Shown here in pieces: positions 4,741-35,027 of a DNA stretch of 60,513 nt. The notes beneath the pieces were generated by a model, which was not told the DNA's origin, made no database searches, and was given only the letters and a program-made list of their open reading frames with translations. Numbering within the stretch: the first letter of the stretch is position 1; each line of letters starts with the position of its first letter. Made by a program: the position numbers and the translations under genes. Source of the DNA: an uncultured Acidimicrobiaceae bacterium. Its GTDB lineage: Bacteria; Actinomycetota; Acidimicrobiia; Spongiisociales; ZC4RG35. The stretch lies in the NCBI GenBank assembly GCA_964501055.1, contig CAZCRP010000001.1, positions 1 to 60,513 of the forward strand. The letters are read 5' to 3'.

Positions 4741-4995
4741 CGACGAGGTGTTGTGACTCCCACGCGCGGATCGCCTCTCGGTCCGTCGACCGCCCGATGC
4801 CGGATCGGGCAGAGAGCTCATGCTCGGTGGGGAGGCGGTCACCCGGCCGGTAGGTACCGTCAAGGATCTCGACTCGGAGCGATTCGGAGAGTGTCCGATA
4901 GGCCGGATGGCGGGTCTCGGTTGTCCTGGTACGTTGGAGATACGTCAGACATTTCGGCTAGTACCGCAGGAAGCGGTCGAATGAGGAAGAGCGGA

Positions 4996-5859: not shown

Positions 5860-5885
5860 TCGCACCAACGAGACCCAGACGCATC

Positions 5886-6511: not shown

Positions 6512-6559
6512 GTGCGACCGTGCTCTGCCGCGGTGCGTTCGTCGGTGAGCGTTCGGCGC

Positions 6560-9538: not shown

Positions 9539-9595
9539 TACTGCGATGCTAGCTCGGATGAAAGTGCCAATTCACCATGTGAAACCGTCGTTACA

Positions 9596-10882: not shown

Positions 10883-10890
10883 TCGAGTGT

Positions 10891-12869: not shown

Positions 12870-12912
12870 GTTCGTCCTTTCGTGGGAGATGTGTCTCGAA
12901 GGATCCGGATGG

Positions 12913-13704
12913 TCACCAGATCGACCACCCGCCGTCGACCACGAGGTTGTGGCCGGTGATGAAACGTCCGGCATCGGATGCGAGGAGCAGCACCGCCCCC
13001 TTCATGTCCTCAGGGACGCCCATCACACCGAGTGCATTTCCGTCGACGAGACGGCGTACGAACTCCGGGTTCGCGTCGGGCTTCGGCACATGTCCTGGGC
13101 TGATGCAGTTGACTCGGACGCCCGACCGTCCGAACTCGGCGGCGAGGTTCCGAGTCAGTCCGATGATCGCTGCTTTCGATGTCTGGTAGGCGAGGCTCGA
13201 GCGCTTTTTCATGTCGAGCCCGGCGTAGAGGCGAGGGTCGGCGGCCAGGGAGCCATGAACCGAGGACACGGTGATGATCGAACCTGAGTGGCGAGGAAGC
13301 ATGTAGCGGGCAGCGGCATTGGCGGTGGTGATGGTTCCGAGGAGATGGGACTCCCATGTGGCGCGGACGGCATCCAGATCGGTGTCGGGCGGGAACGAAC
13401 TCTCGGCGTTGGCGCCGGCATTGCACACCGCGATGTCGACAGGGCCGGCTTCGGAGGCGATATCGGAGAGGGCGGTGTCCACGCGCCTGGGATCGGTGAT
13501 GTCCATCTGCACCGCTTGGCACCATCCTCCGTTGTCGCGGACTGCAGCAGCCGTCTCCTCGATGAGTTCCGGCCGTCGTCCGCCGACGAACGTCCTGGCT
13601 CCGTGCGCTGCGAGTCCTTCGGCCATCGCCCGCCCCAGGTGGGTGCCGCCCCCTGTGACGAGCGCAACACGGTCGGTCAGGTCGAACATCGAGGCGTCGG
13701 TCAT
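12913..13704 (-). CDS. SDR-family oxidoreductase
   Basis: TGGGTHLG cofactor motif, YQTSK catalytic motif and NAG. Confidence 0.85.
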   Translation of the reverse strand: MTDASMFDLTDRVALVTGGGTHLGRAMAEGLAAHGARTFVGGRRPELIEETAAAVRDNGGWCQAVQMDITDPRRVDTALSDIASEAGPVDIAVCNAGANAESSFPPDTDLDAVRATWESHLLGTITTANAAARYMLPRHSGSIITVSSVHGSLAADPRLYAGLDMKKRSSLAYQTSKAAIIGLTRNLAAEFGRSGVRVNCISPGHVPKPDANPEFVRRLVDGNALGVMGVPEDMKGAVLLLASDAGRFITGHNLVVDGGWSIW

Positions 13705-18050: not shown

Positions 18051-19036
18051 CTGTGGAACTCGAACGTCGAGAAGCGTTGAGCGACAGGGTCGCACAGCTC
18101 GACCGGATGCTCGAGATTCGCCGGACCGAGGAGTGCATCCAGGCGATGTTTGCCGAAGGGCTCGTGAAGGGCACCACCCACACCTGCCAGGGGCAGGAAG
18201 CGGTGTCCGTCGCGATCGCCGCGTCGACCACGCCCGAGGATGTGGTCACATGTACCTACCGAGGACATGGACATGCGCTCGCACTCGGGATGACTCCTAC
18301 ATCCGTGATGGGTGAGGTGCTCGGCAAGACGGTCGGTTCGATCGGCGGCGTTGGCGGATCGATGCACCTGTCCGATCTGTCGATTGGTCTCCTGCCGACC
18401 TTCGCCATCGTGGGCGCCGGCATCCCGGTTGCAGTCGGGGCGGCGATCGGGCGTCGGGCAGCCGGTACGGACGGGATCGGTGTCGCCGTGTTCGGTGACG
18501 GCGCCACCAACATCGGCGCATTCCACGAGGCGCTCAACCTGGCCAGCGTATGGAACGTGCCCGTCGTCTTCGTGTGCGAGAACAACCTGTATGGCGAGTA
18601 CAGCCGCATCGATCGGACGACTCCTTTCGAGGATCTGTATCGGCGGGGGGCCGCGTACGACATTCCGTCCCGGGCCGTCGACGGCCAGGACGTCGATTCT
18701 CTCATCGAGGAGCTGTCGGTCGAGTTCGAGGCCGCCAGGTCAGGGCCTGGTCCGCGCTTCGTCGAGGTCAAGACGTACCGCTTCGTGGGACACTCCCGCA
18801 GTGACACTGCGCCCTATCGTCGCGCCGGCGAACTCGATGAGTGGCTGGAGCGGGATCCGATCGCCATCCTCGGCAGCCGGCTCGTCGAGGAGGGTGCGCT
18901 CTCCGCGGACTCCCGAGCCGCGCTCGATCGCGACGTCACCGGCCGGGTCGAAGAGGCAATGGTGACAGTCAAGGCCGCCGAAGGGCCCCAGGTCCCAGCG
19001 ATGTTCGCCAACATCTACGCGGCACCCTCCGACTGA
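18047..19036 (+). CDS. 2-oxoacid dehydrogenase E1 component, alpha subunit (TPP-binding)
   Basis: ATGA overlap with the beta subunit. TPP motif FGDGATNIG...CENNLYG, plus YRGHGH. Confidence 0.9.
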   Translation: MTVELERREALSDRVAQLDRMLEIRRTEECIQAMFAEGLVKGTTHTCQGQEAVSVAIAASTTPEDVVTCTYRGHGHALALGMTPTSVMGEVLGKTVGSIGGVGGSMHLSDLSIGLLPTFAIVGAGIPVAVGAAIGRRAAGTDGIGVAVFGDGATNIGAFHEALNLASVWNVPVVFVCENNLYGEYSRIDRTTPFEDLYRRGAAYDIPSRAVDGQDVDSLIEELSVEFEAARSGPGPRFVEVKTYRFVGHSRSDTAPYRRAGELDEWLERDPIAILGSRLVEEGALSADSRAALDRDVTGRVEEAMVTVKAAEGPQVPAMFANIYAAPSD

Positions 19037-19275
19037 TGGCCAGGACACGTGTCAAGCTCCCGAACTTTGGGGACTCGGTGGATGCCGCGACACTCGTCGA
19101 GTGGCACGTGGGCACCGGTGATCGTGTGGAGCTCGAGCAAGTGCTGCTTACCGTTGAGACCGACAAGGTGGACGCCGATGGTCCGTCGCCCGTCGGAGGA
19201 GTGGTCGTCGAACTCCTTGCCGAGGCGGGGACGGAACTCCATGCCGGCGATCCGATCTGTGTGATCGAGACATGA
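19036..19275 (+). CDS. Stand-alone lipoyl/biotinyl-attachment domain protein (79 aa)
   Basis: TGATG junction with E1 alpha. The sequence VEWHVGTGDRVE...LLTVETDKVDADGPSP contains the ETDK lipoyl-lysine motif. There is no E2 catalytic domain. Confidence 0.8.
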   Translation: MARTRVKLPNFGDSVDAATLVEWHVGTGDRVELEQVLLTVETDKVDADGPSPVGGVVVELLAEAGTELHAGDPICVIET

Positions 19276-20447: not shown

Positions 20448-20834
20448 ATGGACGTGCAGAGGGTGCCTTCGGAGAGGGCGTGGTCCCATGTCGGATACTC
20501 GCGCGCCGTGAGGGTGGGCGACGTGATCGAGGTCGCCGGGACCACAGCATCTGGGCCGGGCGGAGCCATCATCGCTCCTGGCGACATGTACGAGCAGGCC
20601 AAGTACTGCATCGATGTGATCAGGAAGGCGATCGAGGAGCTCGGCGGTCGCGTCGAGGATGTCGTACGTACCAGGGTCTTCCTGACGGACATCTCCCAGT
20701 GGGAGGAAGCCGGGCGCGCTCACGGAGAGGTGTTCGGCGAGATCCTGCCGGCGTCGGCGTTCGTCGGCGTCAGTGAGTTGCTCCATCCCGATCTGATGAT
20801 CGAAGTCGAGGCCACCGCCATCGTCCGGAGTTGA
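20448..20834 (+). CDS. RidA/YjgF-family protein (copy 2)
   Basis: Contains VIEVAGTTA...VVRTRVFLTD...MIEVEATAIV. The ATG is preceded by AAAGGTGA. An alternative GTG at 20433 overlaps the cupin stop. Confidence 0.8.
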   Translation: MDVQRVPSERAWSHVGYSRAVRVGDVIEVAGTTASGPGGAIIAPGDMYEQAKYCIDVIRKAIEELGGRVEDVVRTRVFLTDISQWEEAGRAHGEVFGEILPASAFVGVSELLHPDLMIEVEATAIVRS

Positions 20835-20938
20835 CCGGTTGCGGGCGTCGTAAGTCTGGCCCTCTGTTCCCAGGCGCGCTTTACCCACGCGAACGGTCGT
20901 GTTCTTGCGACCCTGGTTCGCCGAGAAGGCAGGTTTCT

Positions 20939-22417
20939 TCAGTCTTCCCAGGGTTCTTCGAGGTCGGCGTCCCATGGCCACAGGGGGCGGGGGATGCGGG
21001 TGTACGGGAGTGCCGTGAGGTCGCTGCCTGCGGGCCCGGGCACGTCGACGTCGATACAGGTGGCGATCTTCTCGTAATACTCTCGATAGGCCCCGGCCGA
21101 CTTGGGTTGCACGATCTTGGCGAGGCGCGGATCGAGTCCCACGCTCAGATACGCCTCGTAGTCGACCATACGGGGGCGGTGCGTCGTCACCATGATCGCG
21201 ATGCTCCCGATGTCGAGAACGGCGGTCGGCCCCATCTCTAGCCACCGGATGCCTCCGTAGTGGTTGAGGTAGTGGCCGTCGGTGAGTGTGCGGACCGTCC
21301 CTGAGACCTTCACGGGGGAGTAGAACTTCGGGTTGTACTTGCCGCCGAGTGTGGTGGTGACGGTGCCGCCGATTCCGGCGGCGATGCACTCTGCCACCGC
21401 TTCGCCGTCGCGCACCATGAGAATGCACGGCGCTGTCAGATCGGTTCTCGCGAGAAGGGCCTTGAGCAGCAGGTTTCCGTCACCGAGGCCGCCGGCGGTG
21501 GTGCTGTCCGCGCCCTCCGACAATGCGAATACGCCGTCTACGGCGAGGGCGGTGTCTATGGCCTCGTCGACGTCCGTCTTCTCGAGCAGGTACTCGTCGC
21601 GATGGTCCCAGGCCGTGCGGGCGATCGAATCTGCGGTCTCCTGCCCGAGGTCCTGGGCGGCGTCGGTGACGATCACCGTCGACCAACCCAGTTCGGAGAT
21701 GTCCAGCCACGGTTGGGTGCAGAACGCCGTCGCAGCCAAGATGCGGGGGTCCTCTTCGGCCTCGTGGAGGCGATCGATCACGCGCTTGTTCGGGAGCACG
21801 CGATCGTCGTGGGTCTCAGATGTCGTCAGCATGCGGTACTTCCGCATCGAGACCTTGGGGTGGACCTCGCCACGGATCGTTCGAACCAGGATTTCCATCG
21901 CTGCCTTCCCCGTGCGGCGGAGGTCGACATGGGGACAGGTCTGGTAGCCGACGATGATGTCAGCGCTTGCCGCCATGCGGGCGGTCATGTGGGTGTGGAG
22001 GTCGAATGTCGCTGCGATCGGCATCTCAGGACCGACCACCTCGCGCACCCTGGCGAGGATCTCCCCTTCGGCGTCGTCGAGGCTCTCGGTCACCATCGCG
22101 CCGTGGAGTCCGAGCATCACCCCATCGATGGAGTCCAGATTCGCCTTCACACCTTCGATGAGCATTCCGACGAAGTGCTCGAAGGCAGCATCGGCGACGA
22201 CAGGACCCGAGTGGGCCATCGCGTCGAACAGCGGGACGAGTTCGACGCTCTCGGCATCAGCGATATCGAGATAGCCGTCCATTTCGCGGTTGCCTGCCCG
22301 ACGAAGGACGTCTGCGCCCTCCGCGATCCCGTTCAGCTCGAAGTCGGCCAGCGACGTGACTCCCGGGACGAAACTGTGGCTCTCCTGACGAAGCAGCGCG
22401 ACGAGGACGCGTTCCAT
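20939..22417 (-). CDS. M81-family metallopeptidase, MlrC-like (intact copy 3)
   Basis: An internal ATG at 22417 is preceded by AGGAGA. The protein begins MERVLVALLRQESHSFVP and contains LHGAMV, GGLGDGN and IVQPKSAGAYREYY. Confidence 0.85.
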   Translation of the reverse strand: MERVLVALLRQESHSFVPGVTSLADFELNGIAEGADVLRRAGNREMDGYLDIADAESVELVPLFDAMAHSGPVVADAAFEHFVGMLIEGVKANLDSIDGVMLGLHGAMVTESLDDAEGEILARVREVVGPEMPIAATFDLHTHMTARMAASADIIVGYQTCPHVDLRRTGKAAMEILVRTIRGEVHPKVSMRKYRMLTTSETHDDRVLPNKRVIDRLHEAEEDPRILAATAFCTQPWLDISELGWSTVIVTDAAQDLGQETADSIARTAWDHRDEYLLEKTDVDEAIDTALAVDGVFALSEGADSTTAGGLGDGNLLLKALLARTDLTAPCILMVRDGEAVAECIAAGIGGTVTTTLGGKYNPKFYSPVKVSGTVRTLTDGHYLNHYGGIRWLEMGPTAVLDIGSIAIMVTTHRPRMVDYEAYLSVGLDPRLAKIVQPKSAGAYREYYEKIATCIDVDVPGPAGSDLTALPYTRIPRPLWPWDADLEEPWED

Positions 22418-22506
22418 TGTTCTCCTATCCGATTCGTGCCGCGCAGCATACCCATAACCCATATTCGATATCACGAACGAGTCGGTCGCCTACTCAAAGG
22501 GGATGG

Positions 22507-24117
22507 CTACGCCCTCGAATAGGCCACCGCACCGCCCAGCCGGCGCGGATCGGCCCCACCCCGGAAGTCGCCGTTCTCCACCATCGCCATCTGCACCGAG
22601 CCGAATGCCGGTTCGTAGTTGTGGAACGAGTGGACCAATTCCATACCTCGTGATCGGAGCTGCTCGACAGTCTTGGACGAGACACGCAGTTCCGCGTACA
22701 CCGGCTGGCCCTCACTGTGCAGGCGCGGTGCCGAGACGGCTTCCACCGGCGACATCCCGAAGTCCACGACGTTGCTGATCGCCTGCGCCACGGCGGAACT
22801 GATCGACCAACCGCCGGGGGCGCCGACCACCATCCACGGGGTCCCGTTCTTGCGGATGATCGTCGGAGAGACCGCGCTGGCCCGTGCTCTGCCCGGCTCG
22901 TAGGAGTTGGGACGACCAGGCACCGGATCCATCAGGCTCACACAGTCGTTCCAGGTGAACCCGGTGCCCGGGATCACGACGCCGGAGCATGTCGTCAGGG
23001 TCTGTGTGATCGACGCGCAGTTGCCTTGCTCGTCGATGATGGAGAGGTGGGTGGTGTCGCCCGGCATGTTGAGCTGGCGCCGGGTGGGGAGCTCGCCTAC
23101 GCGGATGCGGTCGGCGATTCGCGCTGCGTGCTCGTCGGACAGCAGTTCCTCGGTGGGAACCGGATTGAACGCGGGGTCGCTGAGGTGGTTGCCACGAGTC
23201 ACACCGACCCAGCTGAGGGCGGCCCCGACGATAAAGCAGTGGTCCGGTCCGCCGTGCTCCATAGACGACAGATCGAACTGGTTCAGGATGTTCAGTGCTT
23301 GCAGTGTGAGAAGTCCGCCACCCGGTACAGGCGACGAATGCACCTCAACGTGTCGATAACGCACGCGCAGCGGCGGCTCGATCGAGGGGCGGTAGTTCGC
23401 GAGATCCTCGCGAGTGACGAACGCTCCGTTGGCCTCGAAGTCGGCGATGATCGTGTCTGCCAGCCCTCCTCGGTAGAAGTCCTCGGCGCCATGGGTAGCG
23501 ATCCGTTCGATGGTGGCGGCCTGGTCCGGGTTCACGTAGTGCTCACCGGTTCGTTTCAACTCTCCGTCGGCGTTGTGGAACAGGACGCGGGCAGCGGGGG
23601 TGGCGGCGTACTTCTCCCGCGGATGGGGCATGCCTGGGAGGCTCGGCTGGTGGCCGCGATTGGCGACGTATTCGGGCATCGGGAAACCCTGCCGGCTCAA
23701 CTCGATGCTCGGCGCGAGGAGTTCGGACATCGATAGGGTGGAGAAACGACGGTGAATCTCGTCGAAGCCCGCGACAGTGCCCGGTGTCATGATGGAGCCG
23801 TAGCCGATCATGTTGCGCTGGTCGGCGAACAGGGCGAACCGCCATATCTCCGTGTAGCCCTCGATGTCGTCGACCCACATGTCGGGCGCCATGCGGGCAC
23901 CGATCCGTGGCCAGAAGCCGATGTGTTCGAACCGGTCGGCTGCAGCGTGATACAAGGTGGCTGCTCCCCAGCCGCCGAGTCCGCACATGAAGGGGTCCGT
24001 CACGATCTGCATGTATCCGGTGGCGATGGCCGCGTCGAACGCATTTCCGCCGCGTTCGAGGACCGCGGCGCCGGTCTCGACGGCGGCGGGCTGTGGGGCA
24101 ACGACGACGCCCTTCAT
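22507..24117 (-). CDS. ggt: Gamma-glutamyltransferase family protein
   Basis: The ATG at 24117 is preceded by AGGAAA. Begins MKGVVVAPQPAAVETG. Autoprocessing/nucleophile motif GDTTHLSIID, plus PGGWSI. Confidence 0.9.
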   Translation of the reverse strand: MKGVVVAPQPAAVETGAAVLERGGNAFDAAIATGYMQIVTDPFMCGLGGWGAATLYHAAADRFEHIGFWPRIGARMAPDMWVDDIEGYTEIWRFALFADQRNMIGYGSIMTPGTVAGFDEIHRRFSTLSMSELLAPSIELSRQGFPMPEYVANRGHQPSLPGMPHPREKYAATPAARVLFHNADGELKRTGEHYVNPDQAATIERIATHGAEDFYRGGLADTIIADFEANGAFVTREDLANYRPSIEPPLRVRYRHVEVHSSPVPGGGLLTLQALNILNQFDLSSMEHGGPDHCFIVGAALSWVGVTRGNHLSDPAFNPVPTEELLSDEHAARIADRIRVGELPTRRQLNMPGDTTHLSIIDEQGNCASITQTLTTCSGVVIPGTGFTWNDCVSLMDPVPGRPNSYEPGRARASAVSPTIIRKNGTPWMVVGAPGGWSISSAVAQAISNVVDFGMSPVEAVSAPRLHSEGQPVYAELRVSSKTVEQLRSRGMELVHSFHNYEPAFGSVQMAMVENGDFRGGADPRRLGGAVAYSRA

Positions 24118-24601
24118 GACATTTCCTGTGTGTGTAGCTGCCACTCACTGGTGGTGATCCGGTCTCCGAGCACCGAGGGATCGAAGGTTGCACCGATGCC
24201 GGGTACCGGAGTCAGGGTGAGTTCGCCGTTGGCGATTTCTTCGGCCGGGCTCACAACGGTCCTGCGATCGATCGGCTCCCCGAAGATGGTCGCCGATCCG
24301 ACGGCCGCGATGCCGGCGACGAGCCTGCGCAGGAACGACTCGGCGCGGCTCCCGCCATGACCGAGATGGTCGGTGATCCGTACGTCCAGTGCGTCGAGGT
24401 CGTCGCCAGACGGTTGGTTGCGAGGAGTGGTGCGACCGCCGAGATCACGGCTGCTCCGGCCTCCGAATCGCGGAGATCGGAGCACTCGCCCAGCCCTGTG
24501 AAACCGTCGGCCGTCGTGACCTCCGTCACAAACCACGTCGTTCGGTGGCTCACCGCGATCTGGTGGAGACGGACGGATTCGATGTATGGCGCAGTCGTCA
24601 T
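24114..24601 (-). pseudogene. Enolase-superfamily (mandelate racemase/muconate lactonizing) remnant with its middle deleted
   Basis: The N-terminal IESVRLHQIAVSHRTTWFVTEVTTADGFTGLGE and the C-terminal GELTLTPVPGIGATFDPSVL lie in two frames only about 490 nt apart. Both ATGA junctions, at 24598-24601 and 24114-24117, are intact. Confidence 0.5.
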
Positions 24602-26178
24602 GTCCGTCGGAGTACTCGTCCGGGCCGATCGGCAGACAGCGAGCCGTTCTCGACCATCACGGTCCCGGCCACCGCAACGATGTCGATTCCGGTCGGAGCG
24701 CCGGGTTCCTCGCCGAACTCCGCGTTGTCGCTTACCGTGGCGGGATCGAAGACGACGAAGTCGGCAACGGCTCCCTCGCGCAGCACGCCGCGGTCGGCGA
24801 GGCCGAGACGCCGCGCCGGTTCTCCCGTCATCTTATGAACGGCGTCGGCGAGCTGCAGGACACCCCTGTCACGCGTGTAGCGGCCGAGCACGCGGGGGAA
24901 GGTTCCGAAACTCCGGGGGTGCGGTCGTGCCGTCGGCTGGTGCAGCGGAATCGCGTTTCCGTCTGACCCCACAACCGAGAGCGGGTGGGCGAGGAACGTC
25001 TCCATGTCTTCCTCGGTCCGGTAGAAGAGGACCACCTGCATTTCGTTCCCGTATCGCTCGCAGAGTCGGATGGTGTGCTCGTACGGGTCGACGTCGGCTT
25101 CCGCGGCGAGGTCGGCAAGCGACGAGGCCACCCCGTACCCGTCGGGGGTGTGGCTCACCACGAAGCGGTCCCACAGCCAAGGAATGCCGCCAAACCATCC
25201 GGCGGTCATGTCGGAGAGTGCGCGATCCCGTTCGGCGGGATCGGCCATCCGCCGGCGGAGCTCCTCGGTTCCTCCGGCCTGGACCCACGGCGGGAGGTAT
25301 TGGGTGAGGGACGAGGACGAGGCGTGATACGGGTAGACGTCGAAGACGATGTCCACCCCGTCGTCACGCGCGTCCTCCAACATTCCCATGAGTTCTGCGC
25401 CTGTACCCCACCGGCTGGGATTGTTGATCGCCATGTGGCTGAACTCCACGGTGACCCCGGTTTCGCGTCCGAGGTCGATGGCTTCTCCCACCGAACCGCG
25501 TTCGAGTGTCCCGCTGACACGGGAGTGCGTTGCATAGAGGGCACCTCGCGCGGCGAGTACCCGAGCGAGGGCGGCCACCTCGTCGAAATCGCCGTAAGCG
25601 CTGGGCACGTGGGTGAGGCCGGTGCTCATCCCGAACGCCCCCTGGTCGAGGGCCACGGTGAGATCGCGTTCCATGCGGGCGAGTTCGTCTGCGGTCGGCG
25701 GCCTCTGATCGACGCCCATCGCTGCTACCCGGAGGGTGCCGTGGCCGGCGAGCGGGACGACATTGATCGCTAGTCCAGCGGCGGCGAGTGCCTCGGCATA
25801 GCCATCGAGGTCGGTCCACCACGGCACGATCGAGGCGGTGGCCCTGGCGAGATGGTCGGCGTGGAGATCGAGCCTGGACGGTTCGATCGGGAAGGCTGCG
25901 AACGAACAGTTGCCGACGACCTCGGTGGTGACGCCCTGACGGAGCTTGCTCTCGCCGGTGCCGTCCTCGACGAGCGTCAGATCCGAATGGGTGTGGATGT
26001 CGATGAAACCGGGGGCCAGGACCCGCCCGGCAACATCGATGGTTCGAGCGGCCGCCGCGTCTTCCGGAATCGTCCCGACGGCGGTGATGCGACCGTCGCG
26101 AGCGCCGAGATCAGACGCCCGCGCAGTCCGACCGGTGCCGTCGATCAGAGAGGCGTTGCGGATCACCAGATCGAACAT
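24598..26178 (-). CDS. N-acyl-D-amino-acid deacylase (D-aminoacylase) family amidohydrolase, copy 1
   Basis: 526 aa. Contains MFDLVIRNASLIDGTG, APGFIDIHTHSD and QGVTTEVVGNCSFAAFP. Confidence 0.9.
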   Translation of the reverse strand: MFDLVIRNASLIDGTGRTARASDLGARDGRITAVGTIPEDAAAARTIDVAGRVLAPGFIDIHTHSDLTLVEDGTGESKLRQGVTTEVVGNCSFAAFPIEPSRLDLHADHLARATASIVPWWTDLDGYAEALAAAGLAINVVPLAGHGTLRVAAMGVDQRPPTADELARMERDLTVALDQGAFGMSTGLTHVPSAYGDFDEVAALARVLAARGALYATHSRVSGTLERGSVGEAIDLGRETGVTVEFSHMAINNPSRWGTGAELMGMLEDARDDGVDIVFDVYPYHASSSSLTQYLPPWVQAGGTEELRRRMADPAERDRALSDMTAGWFGGIPWLWDRFVVSHTPDGYGVASSLADLAAEADVDPYEHTIRLCERYGNEMQVVLFYRTEEDMETFLAHPLSVVGSDGNAIPLHQPTARPHPRSFGTFPRVLGRYTRDRGVLQLADAVHKMTGEPARRLGLADRGVLREGAVADFVVFDPATVSDNAEFGEEPGAPTGIDIVAVAGTVMVENGSLSADRPGRVLRRT

Positions 26179-26632
26179 GAGATTCCTGTGTTTCGCATCG
26201 CGGACGGATCGTAGCGCTGGTGCACTAGCGTCCCTGGAGCCCGCGAATGCTCCCCATCAGGCCTGGCGGGAGCCGATCGAATCCGACCTCTCGACCTATC
26301 TTCCGTTCACTTCCGCCGTCGGGGCCGGAGCGTTCGTGTTTGTGAGTGGTCAGGCCTCCGTGGACGACGAGGGGACGATCATCCCTGACACTTTTGAAGA
26401 GGAAGTCGGCGCTCGCTGGACAACGTCGTTCGAGTCCTCGGGGACGCCGGGCTCCATGTTGCGTGATGTCGTGCGTGTGACGACGTACGTCCGCGACCCG
26501 GCCGATGGACCCCGCCACAACGAGATCCATCGCGAGTACTTCACCGACCCACTGCCAGCTCGGACGATCCTCTCGAATTGCCTGTCGCCTGCGCTCCGCT
26601 TCGAGGTGGATGTGATCGCAGTCCGTTCGTAA
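26177..26632 (+). CDS. RidA/YjgF-family protein (copy 3), probably damaged
   Basis: Contains FVFVSGQ...VVRVTTYVRD...PARTIL...FEVDVIAV. About 20 central codons read better in another frame (RSLDNVVRVLGDAGLHV). The only in-frame ATG, at 26177, overlaps the divergent D-aminoacylase start codon. Confidence 0.5.
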   Translation: MRFLCFASRTDRSAGALASLEPANAPHQAWREPIESDLSTYLPFTSAVGAGAFVFVSGQASVDDEGTIIPDTFEEEVGARWTTSFESSGTPGSMLRDVVRVTTYVRDPADGPRHNEIHREYFTDPLPARTILSNCLSPALRFEVDVIAVRS

Positions 26633-26634: not shown

Positions 26635-27603
26635 TCAGAGAGTCGACATGGGCGCGGTGGCCTGGATGAGCGCCCGGATGTAGCCGTAGGCGTAGAGACG
26701 GCCCAGCATCGTGTAACCGGGTGACCCCTCGTCCTCGCCGATGAGCTGGGGCACGTGGTCGGGCCGCACCGGGCCGTCGAAGCCAACCTCGCGATAGGCG
26801 CGCATGGCCTCGACCATGTCGGTCTGCCCGTTGTCCTGCCACGTTTCGGTGAACCGCTCCGGCGTTCCCTTGACATCCCTGAAGTGGACGTAGGCGATGT
26901 GTTGTCCCAGTCGGCGGATCGTGGCGGGGATGTCGATCCCCATCTCCGAGAATGTGCCCTGGCAGAAACCGATCGCATTGGCCGGGGACGGGACGAGTTC
27001 GACGAGTCGTTCGAATGCGGCGACGTCATACATGATCCGATCGTTGCCGAGCAGCGCGGGGAGAGGCGGGTCGTCGGGGTGCATCGCCATTGTCACCCCG
27101 GCCTCTTCTGCGACGGGGACCATCTCGGTCAGGAATGCTTCGAGATTTGTCCACAGTGCGTCGCGGGACATGCCGGACTCGGGTGGAGTCTCATGGTACG
27201 ACTCCCGTCCGGGGATGCCGGCGTTCCCCACCTCTGCGAGATCGAACGCCGTCACCTTGGCTCCGCCCCGCTCAGGAGCGTCGACGCGAGTTCGGATCCA
27301 GTCGGTTCCAGCCATGAAGTTGTAACACACCAGGGGAATCCCGATTTCGCCGAGATGTCTGACGAGTGCCTTCATCTGGGTCATCTCGGTGCCGTCGTCA
27401 CGTCCGAGCTTGATGGCGTGGATGGGGAGACCTCCCTCGATGACCCCGACCCGGAGCCCGAACGACTCGATCCTGGCCTTGGTCGCGTCGAGTTCGGACA
27501 GGTCCGGCCCAGGATTCCGGACCACGATCTCGTCCACCCCCGTTTGTGCAGCGAGCGTGAGGTTCAGATCGGAGAGGGGAGTCAGGACGGATGCGAGCTT
27601 CAT
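26635..27603 (-). CDS. uxuA: Mannonate dehydratase (UxuA family)
   Basis: Contains LVCYNFMAGTDWIRTR, YVHFRDVKG, RPDHVP and GYTMLGRLYAYGY. Confidence 0.8.
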   Translation of the reverse strand: MKLASVLTPLSDLNLTLAAQTGVDEIVVRNPGPDLSELDATKARIESFGLRVGVIEGGLPIHAIKLGRDDGTEMTQMKALVRHLGEIGIPLVCYNFMAGTDWIRTRVDAPERGGAKVTAFDLAEVGNAGIPGRESYHETPPESGMSRDALWTNLEAFLTEMVPVAEEAGVTMAMHPDDPPLPALLGNDRIMYDVAAFERLVELVPSPANAIGFCQGTFSEMGIDIPATIRRLGQHIAYVHFRDVKGTPERFTETWQDNGQTDMVEAMRAYREVGFDGPVRPDHVPQLIGEDEGSPGYTMLGRLYAYGYIRALIQATAPMSTL

Positions 27604-27854: not shown

Positions 27855-28964
27855 ATGAGAATCGAACGGATCGAGGTGATACCCCTCGAGGTGCCCCTGG
27901 GCCGTACGTTCCACGGTTCCTATTACTCGATGGATACCAGGGCGACATTGATCGTCCGGGTCCACACCGACGACGGGGTGATCGGGGAGAGCTACAACGG
28001 CGACGAAGTCCACACCCAGCACGAGATCGGGCGAATCATCACCGAGGAGATCCAGCCCCGGCTGGCCGACCTGGACCCTGCGATGGTCGAACAGTGCTGG
28101 CAGGCGATGCTCCCCCTCACCTTCGACATCCTCCGTGATCGAAAGCTGGTGCTGATGGCGATGGCAGCAGTGGACAGCGCGCTGTGGGATCTCGTCGGGA
28201 AGGTCGCGGCGATGCCTCTCTTCCAACTCTGGGGTGGGGCGCGTACCGAACTGCCGATCGTTGCCATCGGCGGGTACTACCGGCTCTCAGAGGCCGAGTT
28301 GGCTGCCGAAGTCGAGACGTATCTCGAGATGGGAATCGGCGGCTGCAAGATGAAGGTGGGCTCTGCATCGCCCGAGGTCGACGCCGCGCGGTTCATCGCG
28401 ATGCGACGGGCTGCAGCCGGTGAGCCGTTCCTGCTGATGGCCGACGCCAACCAGGGCTACGAGGTGGCCGACGCGGTGCGGTTCGCCCGACTCGTCGAGC
28501 CGCACGGCCTGCGCTGGTTCGAAGAACCGGTGCGGTGGACTGCGGCGGATCTGTGGATGCGAGATGTGCGGGTGATGGCCAGCGTACCGGTTGCTGCGGG
28601 GCAGAGTGAGTTGGGTCGGGGCGACGTTCGTCGCTTGCTCGAGACAGGGGCGATCGATGTGTGCAACTTCGACGCCTCTTGGAGCGGAGGTCCGACGGAG
28701 TGGCGTCGCGTCGCCGGCCTGGCGGCGTCGTACGGCGTAGAGATGGCTCATCACGAAGAACCGCAGGTGTCGGCGCACCTGCTGGCGTCGGTGCCGCACG
28801 GCACCTACGTGGAGGTGTTTCACCCCGATCGCGATCCGATCTTCTGGAATCTGATCGCGAATCGGTCCCGGATCGCGGGCGGCTTTTACGACGTGCCCAC
28901 GGGGCCCGGACTCGGTTTGGAACTGGACTGGACCTTCATCCGGCTCTATCGGATCGACCACTGA
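27855..28964 (+). CDS. Enolase-superfamily enzyme (mandelate racemase/muconate lactonizing family; sugar-acid dehydratase-like)
   Basis: 369 aa. Begins MRIERIEVIPLEVPL and contains CKMKVG, LMADANQGY and FEEP. GGAGG RBS upstream. Confidence 0.85.
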   Translation: MRIERIEVIPLEVPLGRTFHGSYYSMDTRATLIVRVHTDDGVIGESYNGDEVHTQHEIGRIITEEIQPRLADLDPAMVEQCWQAMLPLTFDILRDRKLVLMAMAAVDSALWDLVGKVAAMPLFQLWGGARTELPIVAIGGYYRLSEAELAAEVETYLEMGIGGCKMKVGSASPEVDAARFIAMRRAAAGEPFLLMADANQGYEVADAVRFARLVEPHGLRWFEEPVRWTAADLWMRDVRVMASVPVAAGQSELGRGDVRRLLETGAIDVCNFDASWSGGPTEWRRVAGLAASYGVEMAHHEEPQVSAHLLASVPHGTYVEVFHPDRDPIFWNLIANRSRIAGGFYDVPTGPGLGLELDWTFIRLYRIDH

Positions 28965-29067
28965 GCATCGTCGTTATCATGAAAAGATCTCAGATATCGA
29001 GAATCACGAGCATCGGCGCTGTGTCGTCGGCGAGATCGTCCATGAGCCGGGAGAGGACCTCTGTGAC

Positions 29068-29553
29068 CACGACTGGACGGTCGCTGCCGTCGGCGACGCC
29101 ATCATCGGTACCCGGATCGCCCAGCACGATCGACCCGAGGATCCCCGGTTCGCCGAACTGTGCACCCTCATTCGCAACGCTGATGTGTCGTCGGTGAACC
29201 TCGAGACCAACCTCTTCGATCTCGACCGATTCAGAGGTTGGCCTGCCGCCGAGGGCGGTGGGAGCTATCTGGTCGGCCACCCGGCGGTGGCCGACGACCT
29301 TGTCACCGGTGGCCCGTTCTACGAGTCGCTGGTGCCGAGGATGACCTTCAGCGGCGGGCGTCTCGCCTCGATGTCTCTTCACCCGATCGAACTGTCCGTT
29401 GCCGCACCAGCGGGCTCCCGTGGTACCCCGCGGCTGGCGGAAGGCGAACTGGCAGTCACGATTCTTGAGCGGTTCGCCCGCCTCTGCGAGCCCTTCGGGC
29501 TCGAATTCTCGGTCGATGGCGGCATCGGCCGGTGGCAGACAGGAACTCAATGA
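29068..29553 (+). pseudogene. CapA/PGA_cap-family (poly-gamma-glutamate-associated metallophosphatase-like) remnant with its middle deleted
   Basis: The N-terminal WTVAAVGDAIIGTR...LIRNADVSSVNLETNLFD...LVGHPAVADDLVTGG joins directly to the C-terminal RMTFSGGRLASMSLHPIEL...RGTPRLAEGELAVTILERFARLCEPFG. There is no ATG at the family N-terminus. Confidence 0.45.
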
Positions 29554-29564
29554 AAGGCGACTCG

Positions 29565-31046
29565 ATGCGAATCGGCGTGATCTGGGTCTCCCAGGAGACC
29601 TCAACCTTCAATCCGTCCCCTACGACGAAAGAGCATTTCGAGTCGTTCGGTATCCACCACGGGCACGCGATTTTCGACACGCTCGCGACCTCGGGCTCGA
29701 TCGGCGGCTACCTCAAAGCCGCAGGCGAGCGATCCGACGTCGTGTCCGTGCCGATCTTCCAGGCCAGGGCGGGTGCGGGTGGGCGACTGGACGCCGAGAC
29801 CTTCGCCTATCTCACCGGCGAGATCGAGCGGGGGCTGCGGGAGGCGGGCGAATTGGACGGGCTGGCTCTTCAGGTGCACGGCGCCTGCTCGGCGGAAGCC
29901 GTCGACGACGTCGACGGCTACATCACCGAGCTCGCCCGTGGCATCGTCGGACCCGACGTGCCGATCGTGCTCACCCTCGACCACCACGCCAACATCACCA
30001 GGGCGATGGTGGAGCACAGCGATGCCATGGTCGGGTATCGGACCCAGCCGCACGACCCGTTCGACACCGGTTACGCCTCGGCCAAGGTCCTCTTTCGCAT
30101 CGTGGAGGGGGAGGTGTCGCCAATCACGGCGTTCCGCAAGATCCCGCTCATCTCCCACCAAGAGCAGTACCTCACTTCTCAGCATCCGATGAAGACCTGG
30201 TTCGACCGGGCGCGGGCGATGGAGTCGGAGAACGACACCGTGATCACGGTCTCCACGTTCCCGATGCAGCCGTGGCTCGATGTCGAGGAGGGCGGTTGGG
30301 CGGCGGTCGTGTACACCGACGGGAACCAAGAACTGGCAGACCGACTCGCCGACGAGCTCGGCGACCTTGCTTGGTCGATGCGCGAGGAGTTCCAGATCAA
30401 GACCAGCGTTCCCGTCGCCGCTGCCGTCGCCAGGGCCGAGGCTGCGCCCCAGGGCGTCATCGTTCTGAGCGACACCGGTGACTCTGTCCTCGGGGGTGCC
30501 GGCGGCGACAGCACGGTGTTGCTGAGGGAGATGCTCGAGACGGGCGTCCGTGGGCCGGCACTCGTTCCGCTCGTCCACCCCGCCATCGGTGATCTGATCG
30601 ACGCGTCTCAGGTCGGTTCCACCGTCGCGATCGATATCGGCGGCTCGGTGTCCGGGATGTACGAACCGATCACCGTCACCGGGACCCTGTGCCATCTCGG
30701 GCCATCGAGCTTCGAGATAGGTGGGGTCTCCGTTTTTGCTGGTCTCGTTGTCGACTTGGGCATCACGGCAGTGCTCGACGTGGCGTGTGGCACGGTTGTC
30801 ATCACCCAGCGGCACGGGATAGGCGGGGTCCATCCCGACATGTACCGCCATCTGGGGATCGATCCCGTCGAGTACAAGATGGCGGTCCTAAAGACGGCCT
30901 CGAACTTCCAGTATTTCGCGGATATCTCGCCGGAGACGATCAGGGTGGACACGCCGGGACCGACTCAGTCGGGCATCAGCGATCTGCCCTGGGAGCGGAT
31001 CCCTCGTCCGGTGTATCCGCTCGATGCGATCGAGTCGTGGCGATGA
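29565..31046 (+). CDS. M81-family metallopeptidase, MlrC-like (intact copy 4)
   Basis: MRIGVIWVSQETSTFNP starts after GAAAGG. Long near-identical strings are shared with copy 1 (YRTQPHDP, ISHQEQYLTS, FPMQPWLDVEEGGWA, VLKTASNFQYFAD). Confidence 0.9.
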   Translation: MRIGVIWVSQETSTFNPSPTTKEHFESFGIHHGHAIFDTLATSGSIGGYLKAAGERSDVVSVPIFQARAGAGGRLDAETFAYLTGEIERGLREAGELDGLALQVHGACSAEAVDDVDGYITELARGIVGPDVPIVLTLDHHANITRAMVEHSDAMVGYRTQPHDPFDTGYASAKVLFRIVEGEVSPITAFRKIPLISHQEQYLTSQHPMKTWFDRARAMESENDTVITVSTFPMQPWLDVEEGGWAAVVYTDGNQELADRLADELGDLAWSMREEFQIKTSVPVAAAVARAEAAPQGVIVLSDTGDSVLGGAGGDSTVLLREMLETGVRGPALVPLVHPAIGDLIDASQVGSTVAIDIGGSVSGMYEPITVTGTLCHLGPSSFEIGGVSVFAGLVVDLGITAVLDVACGTVVITQRHGIGGVHPDMYRHLGIDPVEYKMAVLKTASNFQYFADISPETIRVDTPGPTQSGISDLPWERIPRPVYPLDAIESWR

Positions 31047-32200
31047 CCGACATCCGAGAGATCCTGACCGACGCCCGTTCCCGTGAAGACGAGTGGCTTG
31101 ACCTCCTAAGGCAGATCGTCGACATCGACAGCGGGCCGGGTGATTTCGCCGGGATCGAGCTGGTCTACGGCGTGCTCACCAACGCACTCACAGACCTAGG
31201 CTTCGATTCCGAACGGGTGACCAATGCGGGACCCGATGTGCTCGTGTCGCGCCGTTCAGGTGGGGTGGACGCCACCAGAGTCGCCCTCATCGGGCATGCC
31301 GACACCGTCTTCGCCGAGGGCACGGTCGCACAGCGCCCATGCACGAGGGACGGAGACCGCGTGCGGGGTCCCGGCGTGGCCGACATGAAGGGCGGCCTGG
31401 TCGTCGCGCTCGCGGGACTGAGCTTGGCCGGAAGGTCGGTGCTCGACCGGCTCGACCTGACGGTGATCGTCAACGGCGACGAGGAGTCCGGGTCCAAAGA
31501 CTCACGTGCTGTCATCGAAGAACTCGCTCCCGGCTTCGACCTCGCGCTCGTGTTCGAGCCCGGACGCCCGCCAAACGGGTTCGTCGTCTCCCGGCGGGGC
31601 GCACATCGCTTCGAGGTCGCCGTCAAGGGACGGCCGGCGCACACCGGGGTCAACCCAGACGACGGAGCCAACGCCATCGAGACCGCCGCTCATCACATCC
31701 TGGCGATCCAGGAGTTGGGTCGGGCCATTCCCGACGCCACGGTCAACGCCGTGATGATCTCCGGAGGGACACGTCCGAACATCGTTCCCGAACACGCACG
31801 GATCAGGGTCGACAGCAGATTCGATCATGCGGATGGGGAGTCGGCGGTCGTCTCGGGAATGCGTTCGCTGGAAGGTTCCGGTCCGGTCGAGGGCACAATG
31901 ACCACGGTCCGTTCGCTTGATCAGCGACCTGCGTTCGCGGCTCGCCCGGAAGCGGAGTCGCTCACCCGGCTCGTCGTGGAGACAGGACGCGAACTCGGAT
32001 TCGACCTCACGGGCGAGTCAACCGGTGGATCATCGGACGGCAACTTCACGTCCGCTGCCGGAGTGCCGACCGTGGACGGGCTGGGAGCCGTAGGTCACGA
32101 ATTCCACACTCCCGACGAGTACGTGATCGCAGACAGCATTCCCCAACGGGCAGCACTGCTCGCAGTCCTCCTCGAGCGAATCGGCGACGGACGGCCGTGA
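31043..32200 (+). CDS. M20-family metallopeptidase (carboxypeptidase G2-like)
   Basis: ATGA overlap at the start. Metal motifs GHADTVF, GPGVADMKGG and NGDEESGS. Confidence 0.85.
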   Translation: MTDIREILTDARSREDEWLDLLRQIVDIDSGPGDFAGIELVYGVLTNALTDLGFDSERVTNAGPDVLVSRRSGGVDATRVALIGHADTVFAEGTVAQRPCTRDGDRVRGPGVADMKGGLVVALAGLSLAGRSVLDRLDLTVIVNGDEESGSKDSRAVIEELAPGFDLALVFEPGRPPNGFVVSRRGAHRFEVAVKGRPAHTGVNPDDGANAIETAAHHILAIQELGRAIPDATVNAVMISGGTRPNIVPEHARIRVDSRFDHADGESAVVSGMRSLEGSGPVEGTMTTVRSLDQRPAFAARPEAESLTRLVVETGRELGFDLTGESTGGSSDGNFTSAAGVPTVDGLGAVGHEFHTPDEYVIADSIPQRAALLAVLLERIGDGRP

Positions 32201-33432
32201 CTCCGCACACCGTCCTCGCCGGCGTTCGCGTCGTTCGAGTCGATGCACCGGGCATGCCTGTCACCGATCTGGTCGACATCGCGGTCACCGACGGCAGGAT
32301 CTCGTCGATCACTCCTCACGCCGACAAGGGAGACCATGTCGTGGACGGCGGCGGCAGATACATTCTGCCCGGCCTGGTGAACGCACACGATCACCTGTAC
32401 TCCAAGGAACTCCGCACCCCGGCACCGGGTCTGGACATCGCGGCGATGCGTCGACACATCGACACCCGGGACGAGGTGGAAACCGTCGCCGTCATGTTGC
32501 GCAACGCATGGCGGGCCCTGGCGGAGGGCATTGTGGTCATACGAGATCTCGGGTCACGACATGGGGTGAACACGCGCCTCGCATCCCTGCTCGATCGGGG
32601 CATCATGCCCGGACCCATGGTCGTTCCGGCCGGTCGCCCGATCGTGATGACCGGTGGGCACGTGTGGACGTTCGGGCGGGAAGCCGACGGCGCCGACGAC
32701 TGCCGCAGGGCGGTTCGTGAGCAGAAGAAGGCCGGGGCGCGGGTCATCAAGGTGATGGCTTCGGGCGGCCTCTCGAACTTCCCGCACGAGGACTACACGG
32801 TGTGCGAGTTCACGGACGAGGAGCTGGCGGCGATCACACACGAGGCCGCGAAGCTGGGATTGCCGACCTGCGCGCATGCGTTCGGAACGGACGCGATCGA
32901 AGCGGCGGTTCGGGCCGGGATAGACTCTGTCGAGCACGGGGTCCATCTTGATGACTCGACGGTGGCGATGATGATCGACAAGGGCACGGGTTACGTCCCG
33001 ACCATGGCGAACATGCACCGGATCGCCTCGCCGACGCTCAACGACAGCGCCGGCCTACCGGAGCGGAGTCAGCGATTGGACCGGGAGATCGTCCAACCTC
33101 AGATGGCCTCGGTCCGGCGGGCGATCGAGGCGGGTGTCCGTATCGGCGTCGGCACGGACTCGACCGGCACGTACCGCGAGGAGCTCGCCTTGCTGATGGA
33201 GGCGGGGATGGATGCCGAGCGGGTCATTCGCGCAGCCACGATCGACGGAGCGGCTATTTGCCGGGTGGACGCGGGCCTGGTGGCCGAGGGTCACCTGGGC
33301 ATGTTCAGTCTCTACGACGACGATCCACGCGACGATCCCCTCGATCTCGTGGAGCCATCTGCCATGTTCTGTTCGGGACGGATCTACGAGCGCGTTGACC
33401 TCGGGGTGCTCCTCGGGGAGAGTGCCGGATGA
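32197..33432 (+). CDS. Amidohydrolase-superfamily metal hydrolase
   Basis: GTGA overlap at the start. Contains VNAHDHLY (HxH), IKVMASGG, CAHAFG, VEHGVHL and GTDS. Confidence 0.85.
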   Translation: MTPHTVLAGVRVVRVDAPGMPVTDLVDIAVTDGRISSITPHADKGDHVVDGGGRYILPGLVNAHDHLYSKELRTPAPGLDIAAMRRHIDTRDEVETVAVMLRNAWRALAEGIVVIRDLGSRHGVNTRLASLLDRGIMPGPMVVPAGRPIVMTGGHVWTFGREADGADDCRRAVREQKKAGARVIKVMASGGLSNFPHEDYTVCEFTDEELAAITHEAAKLGLPTCAHAFGTDAIEAAVRAGIDSVEHGVHLDDSTVAMMIDKGTGYVPTMANMHRIASPTLNDSAGLPERSQRLDREIVQPQMASVRRAIEAGVRIGVGTDSTGTYREELALLMEAGMDAERVIRAATIDGAAICRVDAGLVAEGHLGMFSLYDDDPRDDPLDLVEPSAMFCSGRIYERVDLGVLLGESAG

Positions 33433-35027
33433 TCGATCCGCCGCTGACCCCGACGTTTGTGATTCGAGGGGGCACAATCGTCGACGGCACCGGTCGGGCC
33501 AGCTTCTCTGCCGACGTGGTTGTGGATGACGGAGTCGTTCGGCTCCTCGAGCCCGGAACCGGGACGGGCTCGCGGATCGTCGATGTCGACGGCCTCGCCG
33601 TCACGCCGGGTTTCATCGACGCTCACAGTCACGCCGACCTCGAGATGTTCCTGGGACCGGGAACGTCCAACGTGCACGAGTGCCGCCTGCTGCAGGGGGT
33701 CACCACCGAGGTGACGGGCAACTGTGGATTCAGCGCGTTCCCACTGCCTGAAGAACGCAGTGATGAGGCGCAGGCGTTCCTCGCATTCGTCTTCGGCGGA
33801 GCTGCCACCGCGTTCCCGTCTCTGGGCGAGTACGTCGCAGCCGTGTCTGCCGCCGGACTGGCATGCAACATCGCTCCACTCGTGGGCCACGGCACTCTGC
33901 GGATCGGCACACTCGGCTACGAGGATCGTCCCGCGACGGGAGTGGAACTCGAGCGGATGGGTGCGGCGCTCACCGCGGCTCTTGGCGCGGGCGCGTTCGG
34001 TCTGGCCACGGGTCTCTGTTACACGCCTGCGACGTACGCCGACACCTCTGAAGTTCGAGACCTTGCCGCGCTGGCGGCGAAGGCGGGTGCCATCTACGCC
34101 ACCCACGTCCGGAACGAGACCGATGGAATCTCTGTCGCAATCGACGAGGCTCTCGCCGTGGCTGAGGCAACGGGTGTGGCGCTCCACATCTCCCATCTCA
34201 AGGTGGCGGGACGCCGCAACTGGGGGACTGCGAGAGACCTGCTCGCCCGCCTGGACGACGCCCGTCGCCGGGGGATCTATGTCACGGCCGATGTGTACCC
34301 GTACACGGCGGCCAGCACGATGCTTCATTCGCTCCTCCCGCCGTGGCTGATCGATCAGGGGAGCGAAACCATGCTCAGCCGTCTTTCCGACCCCGGGGTC
34401 AGGGAACGTGTTGCCGGAGAGTTGGTGAGCGGGATCCCGGGGTGGCAAAACCTGGGTCACGCTGCCGGATGGGACAACGTCTCGGTGGCGTCTTCGCCGA
34501 GACATCCTGAACGGGAAGGCCGCTCGATCGATGAACTCTCGGACTCCGACGATCGGAACCCCGTCGACACGATTGCCCGGATTCTCATCGAAGATCATGG
34601 CCAGGTGGTGGCCGTGATCGAAGCAATGGACGGTGACGATGTGAGGTGCTTTCTGGGGTGGGACCACACAGTCGTCGGATCCGACGGGATACCGCTACCC
34701 GGAAAGCCGCATCCCCGGCTGACGGGGACGTTCCCGCGCGTCCTCGGCCGTTACCGCGATGTGTACGGCGGGTTCGAGGAATCCGTACACCGGATGACGG
34801 GAGCCACGGCGTCGCGTTTTGGTATCCCGCGACGCGGCACCATCAGTGATGGCCAGGTCGCCGATCTCGTCGTGCTCGACCCGGACCGAGTTCGGGACTC
34901 GGGTACCTTCGCCGATCCGTGGCAGAGCCCGATCGGTATCGAGCATGTGATCCTGGGTGGCCGAGCGGTCGTGTGGGACGGCGATGTCGTCGACGCCTCG
35001 CGCGGAAGAGTGCTCCGCCGCGCGTGA
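33429..35027 (+). CDS. N-acyl-D-amino-acid deacylase (D-aminoacylase) family amidohydrolase, copy 2
   Basis: ATGA overlap at the start. Contains TPGFIDAHSHAD and QGVTTEVTGNCGFSAFP, and is collinear with copy 1. Confidence 0.9.
   Translation: MIDPPLTPTFVIRGGTIVDGTGRASFSADVVVDDGVVRLLEPGTGTGSRIVDVDGLAVTPGFIDAHSHADLEMFLGPGTSNVHECRLLQGVTTEVTGNCGFSAFPLPEERSDEAQAFLAFVFGGAATAFPSLGEYVAAVSAAGLACNIAPLVGHGTLRIGTLGYEDRPATGVELERMGAALTAALGAGAFGLATGLCYTPATYADTSEVRDLAALAAKAGAIYATHVRNETDGISVAIDEALAVAEATGVALHISHLKVAGRRNWGTARDLLARLDDARRRGIYVTADVYPYTAASTMLHSLLPPWLIDQGSETMLSRLSDPGVRERVAGELVSGIPGWQNLGHAAGWDNVSVASSPRHPEREGRSIDELSDSDDRNPVDTIARILIEDHGQVVAVIEAMDGDDVRCFLGWDHTVVGSDGIPLPGKPHPRLTGTFPRVLGRYRDVYGGFEESVHRMTGATASRFGIPRRGTISDGQVADLVVLDPDRVRDSGTFADPWQSPIGIEHVILGGRAVVWDGDVVDASRGRVLRRA

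Follow-up and report, generated by a model that had tools for sequence, protein, structure and literature searches.

In a 60,513-nt stretch of DNA from an uncultured Acidimicrobiaceae bacterium (hereafter the window), a minus-strand gene cluster joins a divergent D-aminoacylase-family amidohydrolase, DAA1, to an MlrC-like zinc metallopeptidase of family M81, the third M81 copy on this DNA. The linkage between the two is real and clade-specific, and it belongs to particular subclades rather than to the families as wholes. Between them lie an enolase-superfamily remnant and a gene of the gamma-glutamyltransferase (GGT) family. We conclude that the core of the arrangement is the DAA1-type amidohydrolase plus M81, the GGT-like and dead enolase genes being accessory elements that stand between the two in one Acidimicrobiia lineage. 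The locus is best explained as a cytoplasmic amide-hydrolase operon within a larger catabolic island.

A conserved pairing of DAA1-type amidohydrolases with M81 peptidases

Eight related loci, the window among them (the others being L001, L002, L003, L011, L094, L095 and L096), all carry an M81 gene downstream of the DAA1-type amidohydrolase gene. What stands between the two genes varies. L001 has the order DAA-enolase-GGT-M81 and L002 and L096 the order DAA-GGT-M81, and M81 follows the amidohydrolase directly in L003 (with a 6-nt gap), L011, L094 and L095; these last four, half of the orthologous loci, have no GGT gene. L094, L095 and L096 were found starting from the DAA1-type gene, independently of M81, and M81 lies downstream in all three. 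The M81 proteins of L094 and L095 are 65-68% identical to copy 1 of the window and thus of the copy-1 type, the other related loci having the copy-3 type; the pairing has therefore outlived a change of paralogue.

Other linkages, independent of these, occur elsewhere. In G107 a copy-1-type M81 gene lies 2.6 kb from a D-aminoacylase-like gene; in G453 an M81 gene, a D-Ser-dehydratase-like gene, a short-chain dehydrogenase/reductase (SDR) gene and a D-aminoacylase-like gene share one strand; G343 holds two canonical D-aminoacylases with three M81 genes; and the Bathyarchaeia contig L019 also carries an M81/D-aminoacylase pair. Mapped by parsimony onto an M81 tree of 102 rows, linkage changes state nine times, and at least seven of these changes are forced by well-supported branches; as some rows were chosen for linkage, the tree is evidence on independent origins and says nothing of how frequent the linkage is.

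The picture at the level of whole families is different. Among 400 sampled Actinomycetota genomes, with D-aminoacylase-like genes called at E <= 1e-25, M81 was present in 23, a D-aminoacylase-like gene in 107 and both in 7, so that 30% of genomes with M81 and 27% of those without it had a D-aminoacylase-like gene, with no co-occurrence above chance (Fisher p = 0.64). We also surveyed 80 diverse M81 loci (L011-L090; many phyla, 1.17 Mb) gathered from a six-sequence M81 alignment, and a D-aminoacylase gene lay within ~10 kb of M81 in only two of them. The link is therefore a subclade-level one. The initial annotation had argued that an association seen twice within 15 kb was harder to put down to chance and had proposed, as a check, the statistical co-occurrence of the two families across actinobacterial genomes: the argument holds within the clade, given the eight of eight loci, the paralogue swap and the forced changes on the tree, and fails at the family level. 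The commonest M81 neighbour in the survey was a class-III aminotransferase gene (17 of 80 loci, about 10-12 times its density in this genome), and an enolase-superfamily gene was nearby in 8 of 80 (about ten times its density here). These two neighbours may be more telling of M81 function than the D-aminoacylase link.

An operon-like unit under purifying selection

The four-element minus-strand order that had been described, from DAA1 through the enolase remnant and GGT to M81, was confirmed in full (Table 1), and the ATGA overlaps reported for its first two junctions (24598-24601 and 24114-24117) can be read directly in the sequence. A spacer of 89 nt separates GGT from M81. A terminator scan returned three candidate sites, a count not above that in shuffled sequence; all three were on the plus strand and none on the minus strand. 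A promoter scan yielded no sigma-70-like consensus site, the region upstream of DAA1 (26179-26260) included. The palindrome CGCTGGTGCACTAGCG at 26215-26230, inside the 80-nt divergent region between the RidA-like gene and DAA1 and partly conserved in L001, could be an operator. We infer that the genes of the cluster are co-transcribed. Inspection of the N-termini of DAA1, the GGT-like protein and M81 copy 3 revealed no signal peptide.

The metagenome contig L001 is 83-86% identical to the window in DNA and has the operon too, but there the enolase-superfamily gene is whole (382 aa); this allowed rates of substitution to be compared. Values of dN/dS were 0.07 for DAA1, 0.09 for the GGT-like gene and 0.08 for M81 copy 3, against 0.21 for the enolase remnant; the three enzymes are therefore maintained and the remnant is decaying.

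Catalytic residues are intact and substrate-binding residues are altered

M81 copy 3 has both domains of its family (PF07364, 3.6e-81, 273.1 bits against a cut-off of 22.8; PF07171, 3.6e-38, 132 bits against a cut-off of 27.2) and matches the PDB entries 3iuu (7e-46) and 7ylq, the MlrC structure (3e-32). Its residues E12, D139, H141 and H163, invariant in 14 homologues, correspond to the MlrC zinc ligands E39, D167, H169 and H191 (PMC9982164), and H105 and D304, the equivalents of MlrC H133 and D332, are conserved as well. Two MlrC residues are not conserved: E70 (substrate/catalytic) aligns to Arg and N41 (binding) to His. Against the microcystinase MlrC model NF041767 the protein scores 132.1 bits (cut-off 999) and is not MlrC proper, and no mlrA, mlrB or mlrD gene is present. 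MlrC itself acts on linearised microcystin and on the tetrapeptide derived from it, yielding Adda (PMC9982164); our search of the literature on M81 and DUF1485 found papers on MlrC alone.

DAA1 is an Amidohydro_3 protein (Pfam, 4.1e-24) whose best PDB match is the N-acyl-D-glutamate deacylase 3gip (1.2e-80), with the D-aminoacylase 1m7j (8e-78) and OngB 9kb1 (1.6e-65) behind it. The metal ligands and catalytic Asp of AfDam (HxH, Cys96, His220, His250 and Asp366) are kept, in the motifs IHTH, GNC, ATH, SH and GSDG, as are the Tyr of YPY and the Arg of RPHPR. Its subclade is marked by the motifs SHMAIN, STGLTH and YPYHASSSS, and the first two of these contain two changes, an Ala in place of the alpha-carboxylate Lys (SHMAIN) and a His in place of the amide-oxygen Tyr (STGLTH). 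Both anchors, the Lys (AfDam 252, OngB 254) and the Tyr (AfDam 192, OngB 194), are reported to be strictly conserved in AfDam-, BbDam- and OngB-like enzymes (PMC12017989). Throughout the DAA1 clade Ala replaces the Lys (SH[ML]AIN), in most members His replaces the Tyr, and Ser stands where D-aminoacylases have Thr, as it does in OngB. In the clade, additional residues follow GSDG and the insertion domain is longer; OngB Gln298 and BbDam Arg295 could not be mapped onto DAA1, the insertion domain differing in length and the PDB alignments being partial. DAA2, the D-aminoacylase of the second pairing in the window, is canonical, with SHLK, GLCY and AST kept and both substrate anchors present. Because the conserved Lys is lost, and in most members the Tyr as well, the DAA1 clade is, as judged from its sequences, a fourth and uncharacterised subgroup beside the AfDam-, BbDam- and OngB-like enzymes.

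A similar pattern is seen in the GGT-like protein. It is clearly a member of its family (PF01019, 8.3e-113; PDB 2e0w, 2.9e-68, with a residue alignment), although it scores 343.4 bits against TIGR00066, the NCBIfam GGT equivalog, below the cut-off of 357.85. Thr355 aligns to the catalytic and autoprocessing Thr391 of the E. coli enzyme, and the equivalents of Thr409 and of the oxyanion glycines Gly483 and Gly484 are conserved. In E. coli GGT the head group of the gamma-glutamyl moiety, with its alpha-amino and alpha-carboxylate groups, is bound by Arg114, Asn411, Gln430, Asp433, Ser462 and Ser463 (PMC8062742); five of these six head-group binders are replaced, in that order by W, T, C, L and, at Ser463, A, with Ser462 alone kept. 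None of the five reverts to the E. coli residue in 13 subfamily homologues, down to 48% identity. In the resulting 14-sequence alignment the Asp433 position is Leu in all, nearly every sequence has another residue for Gln430, Asn411 and Ser463, and the Arg114 position varies (W/P/S/H) and is never Arg. Single changes at Asp433 or Arg114 abolish or redirect GGT activity, and D433N gives the E. coli enzyme glutaryl-acylase activity (PMC8062742); because this one substitution has that effect, a non-glutamyl acyl donor is plausible for the GGT-like protein on the strength of its residues. The proposal in the initial annotation that GGT points to gamma- or D-glutamyl substrates thus finds no support in an accessory gene, missing from L003, L011, L094 and L095, whose product has lost most of its glutamyl binders and falls short of the equivalog cut-off.

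Elsewhere the GGT subfamily is found in clusters with CoA-transferase, MaoC and HpcH genes, beside an amidase gene, or with UxuA-like and PhyH genes. In L091 and L093 (Trueperaceae and Amycolatopsis) it adjoins genes for a family-III CoA-transferase, a MaoC-type hydratase and an HpcH/HpaI lyase. By analogy with itaconate/mesaconate-type acyl-CoA pathways, which this gene set resembles, it hints at a dicarboxylic acyl amide as a substrate of the subfamily.

The enolase-superfamily gene is a pseudogene

When compared with its L001 orthologue by tblastn, the remnant has codons 1-64 in one frame and codons 66-97 and 327-382 in another, and a 1-nt deletion near 24408, at about codon 65, would account for the frameshift. 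It has 27 nt in place of 687 nt of L001, with the loss of codons 98-326 and so of the whole catalytic TIM barrel. Neither piece gives a match in a Pfam search, and the features that define the superfamily, an N-terminal capping domain and a TIM barrel with metal ligands and acid/base residues, are not found together in it. It is a true pseudogene. In L096 the enolase gene is absent and the DAA-type gene overlaps GGT by 4 nt, and in L002 its position is taken by a spacer of 188 nt in which the C-terminal part of the enolase is only faintly recognisable; the gene therefore looks repeatedly dispensable.

Two other identities were considered and rejected. A programmed frameshift or a small functional protein does not agree with the deleted barrel, the raised dN/dS and the absence or trace of the gene in L096 and L002. 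A dipeptide epimerase was also dismissed, as the intact orthologue is far nearer to galactonate/mannonate dehydratases (best characterised-family matches 2e-22) than to L-Ala-D/L-Glu epimerase. An intact enolase-superfamily gene, acid-sugar-dehydratase-like, is present in the window at 27855-28964 on the plus strand, divergent from the UxuA-like gene. The gap that follows it (28965-29531), before M81 copy 2, measures 567 nt versus ~96 nt in L003 and may hold another remnant.

Genomic context

The window, with a G+C content of ~65%, makes up all of contig C1 in a metagenome-assembled genome of 3.05 Mb (82% complete); the named close homologues are from Acidimicrobiia. Four of the five M81 matches in the assembly, and two of its four full-length D-aminoacylase paralogues, are on this contig. 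A second M81/D-aminoacylase pairing, with M20 and amidohydrolase genes as its other members, had been described as well and was confirmed by Pfam and NCBIfam matches (Table 1). Two further D-aminoacylase paralogues stand in tandem on contig C104 of G000 (1065-7479), adjoining a FAH-family gene, and this 9-kb contig has no M81.

Table 1 Features of the DAA1 locus and its surroundings in the window
Feature	Coordinates	Strand	Basis
DAA1, D-aminoacylase-family amidohydrolase, 526 aa, divergent subclade	24598-26178	-	Open reading frames; Pfam Amidohydro_3; PDB matches
Enolase-superfamily pseudogene	24114-24601	-	Sequence, translations, tblastn against the L001 orthologue
GGT-family Ntn hydrolase, 536 aa	22507-24117	-	PF01019; start at 24117 agrees with 536-aa orthologues
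M81 (MlrC-like) zinc metallopeptidase, copy 3, 492 aa	20939-22417	-	PF07364 and PF07171; start at 22417 agrees with 492-aa orthologues
Short divergent intergenic region 5' of DAA1, probable operon promoter	26179-26260	.	Gene layout
RidA-like (Rid family) gene	26261-26632	+	tblastn, 67% identity to L001 RidA; NCBIfam Rid family, 1.4e-10
UxuA-like (short mannonate-dehydratase-family) gene	26635-27603	-	PF03786, 3.6e-71; NF003027, 202.6 bits against a cut-off of 191
Second pairing: M81 copy 2 (29532-31046), M20, Amidohydro_1, DAA2 (33429-35027)	29532-35027	+	Pfam, NCBIfam

The most constant neighbours of DAA1-type genes, in seven loci, are UxuA-like and RidA genes on their upstream side, the UxuA-like gene being present in L001, L002, L003, L007, L094, L095 and L096. 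The UxuA-like protein is ~70 residues shorter than canonical UxuA. The RidA-like gene, which adds to the list of genes recorded earlier, sits between the UxuA-like gene and DAA1; it is without the ATG of its L001 orthologue, the nearest in-frame ATG, GTG or TTG upstream being a TTG at 25946, and it may be decaying or using an unusual start.

A D-Ser-dehydratase-like gene, encoding a pyridoxal-phosphate (PLP) enzyme, adjoins M81 in L094, L095, L007 and L008. In the window it lies at 9503-10882, convergent with M81 copy 1 (9503-12974 for the two), and in L094 and L095 the M81/D-Ser-dehydratase-like pair comes directly after the DAA1-type gene. This suggests that the window lineage split an ancestral unit of DAA1, M81 copy 1 and the D-Ser-dehydratase-like gene. 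Downstream of M81 copy 3 follow genes for RidA, a cupin, an SDR, a free lipoyl protein and E1 alpha and beta.

Dpp-type peptide ABC transporter genes are near the pair in L002, L003 and L010. Those of L002 and L003, for two ATPases and two permeases, are interspersed among the genes of the orthologous locus, and both loci have a solute-binding-protein gene 5' of E1 beta, missing at that position in the window. A paralogous transporter is encoded in the window at 48969-55008.

A proposed function and its rivals

Probably, though not by a wide measure of confidence, the module serves to take apart, in the cytoplasm, unusual compounds in which D-amino acids or D-hydroxyamino acids are N-acylated or peptide-linked. 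The substrate class and the order of reactions that we infer are as follows. Small non-standard amides would be imported, the candidates being N-acyl or peptide-linked D-amino acids, possibly beta-hydroxy D-amino acids. M81 and the DAA1-type enzyme would cleave bonds that resist ordinary L-specific peptidases, and the GGT-like enzyme, as an optional extra acylase, would take off another acyl group, one different from the classical gamma-glutamyl group. The freed D-amino acid would then be deaminated by the PLP dehydratase together with RidA, and the keto acid would be oxidised. In favour of this reading stand the family matches and intact catalytic residues of three proteins without signal peptides, the overlapping or closely spaced genes with their low dN/dS, the synteny of the pair and its neighbours, and the precedent of MlrC, which in microcystin cuts the bond N-terminal to a D-Glu residue. 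More tentatively, and as a possibility that we doubt rather than favour, a DAA1 without its carboxylate clamp, a GGT-like protein whose hydrophobic pocket does not fit a glutamyl group, M81, the UxuA-like protein, RidA and the D-Ser-dehydratase-like enzyme could form a dedicated pathway for a still unrecognised class of compounds in environmental organic matter, built from D-amino or hydroxy-amino acids in amide linkage. If true, three enzyme families would each gain a new substrate specificity together.

Several points weigh against the proposed breakdown of D-amino-acid amides. M81 and D-aminoacylases do not co-occur family-wide. DAA1 is without two residues reported to be strictly conserved in all characterised D-aminoacylases and OngB, and to judge from these changes it may act on something other than N-acyl-D-amino acids. 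The Dpp-type genes that flank the pair in L002 and L003 are cleanly absent at the corresponding places in the window (19036-19272 and 20834-20939 compared) and from L096. Finally, many neighbours are of a sugar-acid type (UxuA-like, enolase-superfamily dehydratase, FAH, SDR) and fit a peptide pathway poorly.

The gene neighbours just named are at the heart of one rival, in which the cassette acts on amino-sugar-acid or hydroxy-amino-acid conjugates: DAA1 would, like OngB, deacylate an N-acyl 2-amino-2-deoxy-aldonic acid, the UxuA-like protein and RidA would dehydrate and deaminate the product to a 2-keto-3-deoxy acid, and other groups in amide linkage would fall to M81 and GGT. The match of DAA1 to the OngB structure, the Ser that both have for the D-aminoacylase Thr and the constancy of the UxuA-like and RidA neighbours agree with this, as do the genes that surround the module, which encode an enolase-superfamily acid-sugar-dehydratase-like protein, a FAH protein like 2,4-didehydro-3-deoxy-L-rhamnonate hydrolase, an SDR and an aldo-keto reductase. 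However, OngB retains the Lys254 and Tyr194 that DAA1 has lost, its Gln298 could not be mapped onto DAA1, the UxuA-like protein is short, and no chitin or lytic polysaccharide monooxygenase genes were seen in the window; we regard this route as unlikely. We think it a shade harder still to credit that the cassette degrades gamma- or D-glutamyl compounds, for instance fragments of poly-gamma-glutamate or the stem peptides of peptidoglycan, with GGT cutting the gamma-glutamyl bond and the D-aminoacylase freeing D-Glu. The clear match to the GGT family and the N-acyl-D-glutamate deacylase as nearest structure of DAA1 speak for it, as does the D-Glu contained in the natural substrate of MlrC. Yet the changes R114W, N411T, Q430C, D433L and S463A are restored in none of the 13 aligned homologues; a signal peptide is lacking from the GGT-like protein, which is also below the TIGR00066 cut-off; its gene is missing from half of the orthologous loci, and its subfamily elsewhere keeps company with CoA-transferase, MaoC and HpcH genes or an amidase gene. 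The BbDam stretch with Arg295, the gamma-carboxylate binder, also falls outside the alignable part of DAA1, where the insertion domain is longer.

It is also conceivable, if very improbable, that the genes are not functionally coupled and are neighbours only because the contig is a catabolic island of mosaic make-up, with many hydrolase paralogues and genes in decay, the pairing being inherited by descent in one clade. The crowding of the assembly's M81 and D-aminoacylase paralogues onto this contig, the many remnants and losses (the enolase gene, transporter genes and the RidA start), the null result at the genome level and the two linked loci among 80 are what such an island would show. The pairing has nevertheless outlived the replacement of its M81 paralogue and the gain or loss of GGT and enolase genes, linkage arose in at least five to seven M81 lineages, an archaeon among them, and the overlapping starts and stops signal translational coupling in genes under strong purifying selection.

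These findings bear on more than this locus. M81 is a large family in which MlrC is the one characterised member, and a conserved partner of D-aminoacylase type focuses the hunt for M81 substrates on amide bonds beside D-configured or otherwise non-standard residues. The automatic names "D-aminoacylase" and "gamma-glutamyltransferase" probably mislead for the two subfamilies, because their substrate-binding residues are changed. For the Acidimicrobiia, the locus points to a capacity to use unusual peptide-like nitrogen compounds.

Comparison with known systems

Each enzyme of the cluster has a characterised relative from which it departs. M81 copy 3 shares with MlrC (MEROPS M81; 7ylq) and with the uncharacterised 3iuu the PF07364 and PF07171 architecture, the zinc ligands and the H105/D304 equivalents, and it would likewise be a cytoplasmic hydrolase of unusual amide bonds; its similarity to MlrC amounts to 115 bits, E70 and N41 are lost, and its neighbours are different. 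DAA1 has the amidohydrolase fold and insertion domain of D-aminoacylases, their HxH, Cys, His, His and Asp, and the YPY Tyr and RPHPR Arg, whereas its clade has Ala, mostly His, and Ser in place of the Lys and Tyr anchors and the Thr, and a longer insertion domain. The GGT-like protein shares the full-length Ntn-hydrolase fold, the Thr nucleophile, the counterpart of Thr409 and the two oxyanion-hole glycines with E. coli GGT (2e0w/2dbx) and with class IV cephalosporin acylase-like proteins (2nlz), but unlike E. coli GGT it lacks a signal peptide, has five of six glutamyl binders replaced and stays below the equivalog cut-off.

As a whole, the locus recalls the murein-peptide recycling set of E. 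coli, MpaA, YcjG (L-Ala-D/L-Glu epimerase) and PepD, which acts in the cytoplasm on peptides with D-residues. Both combine cytoplasmic amide hydrolases with an enolase-superfamily enzyme. The enzyme families differ, however, and the enolase gene of the locus is acid-sugar-dehydratase-like, dead here and absent from several relatives. Among catabolic hydrolase operons of the ordinary sort the locus is an uncharacterised variant, not a new kind of system.

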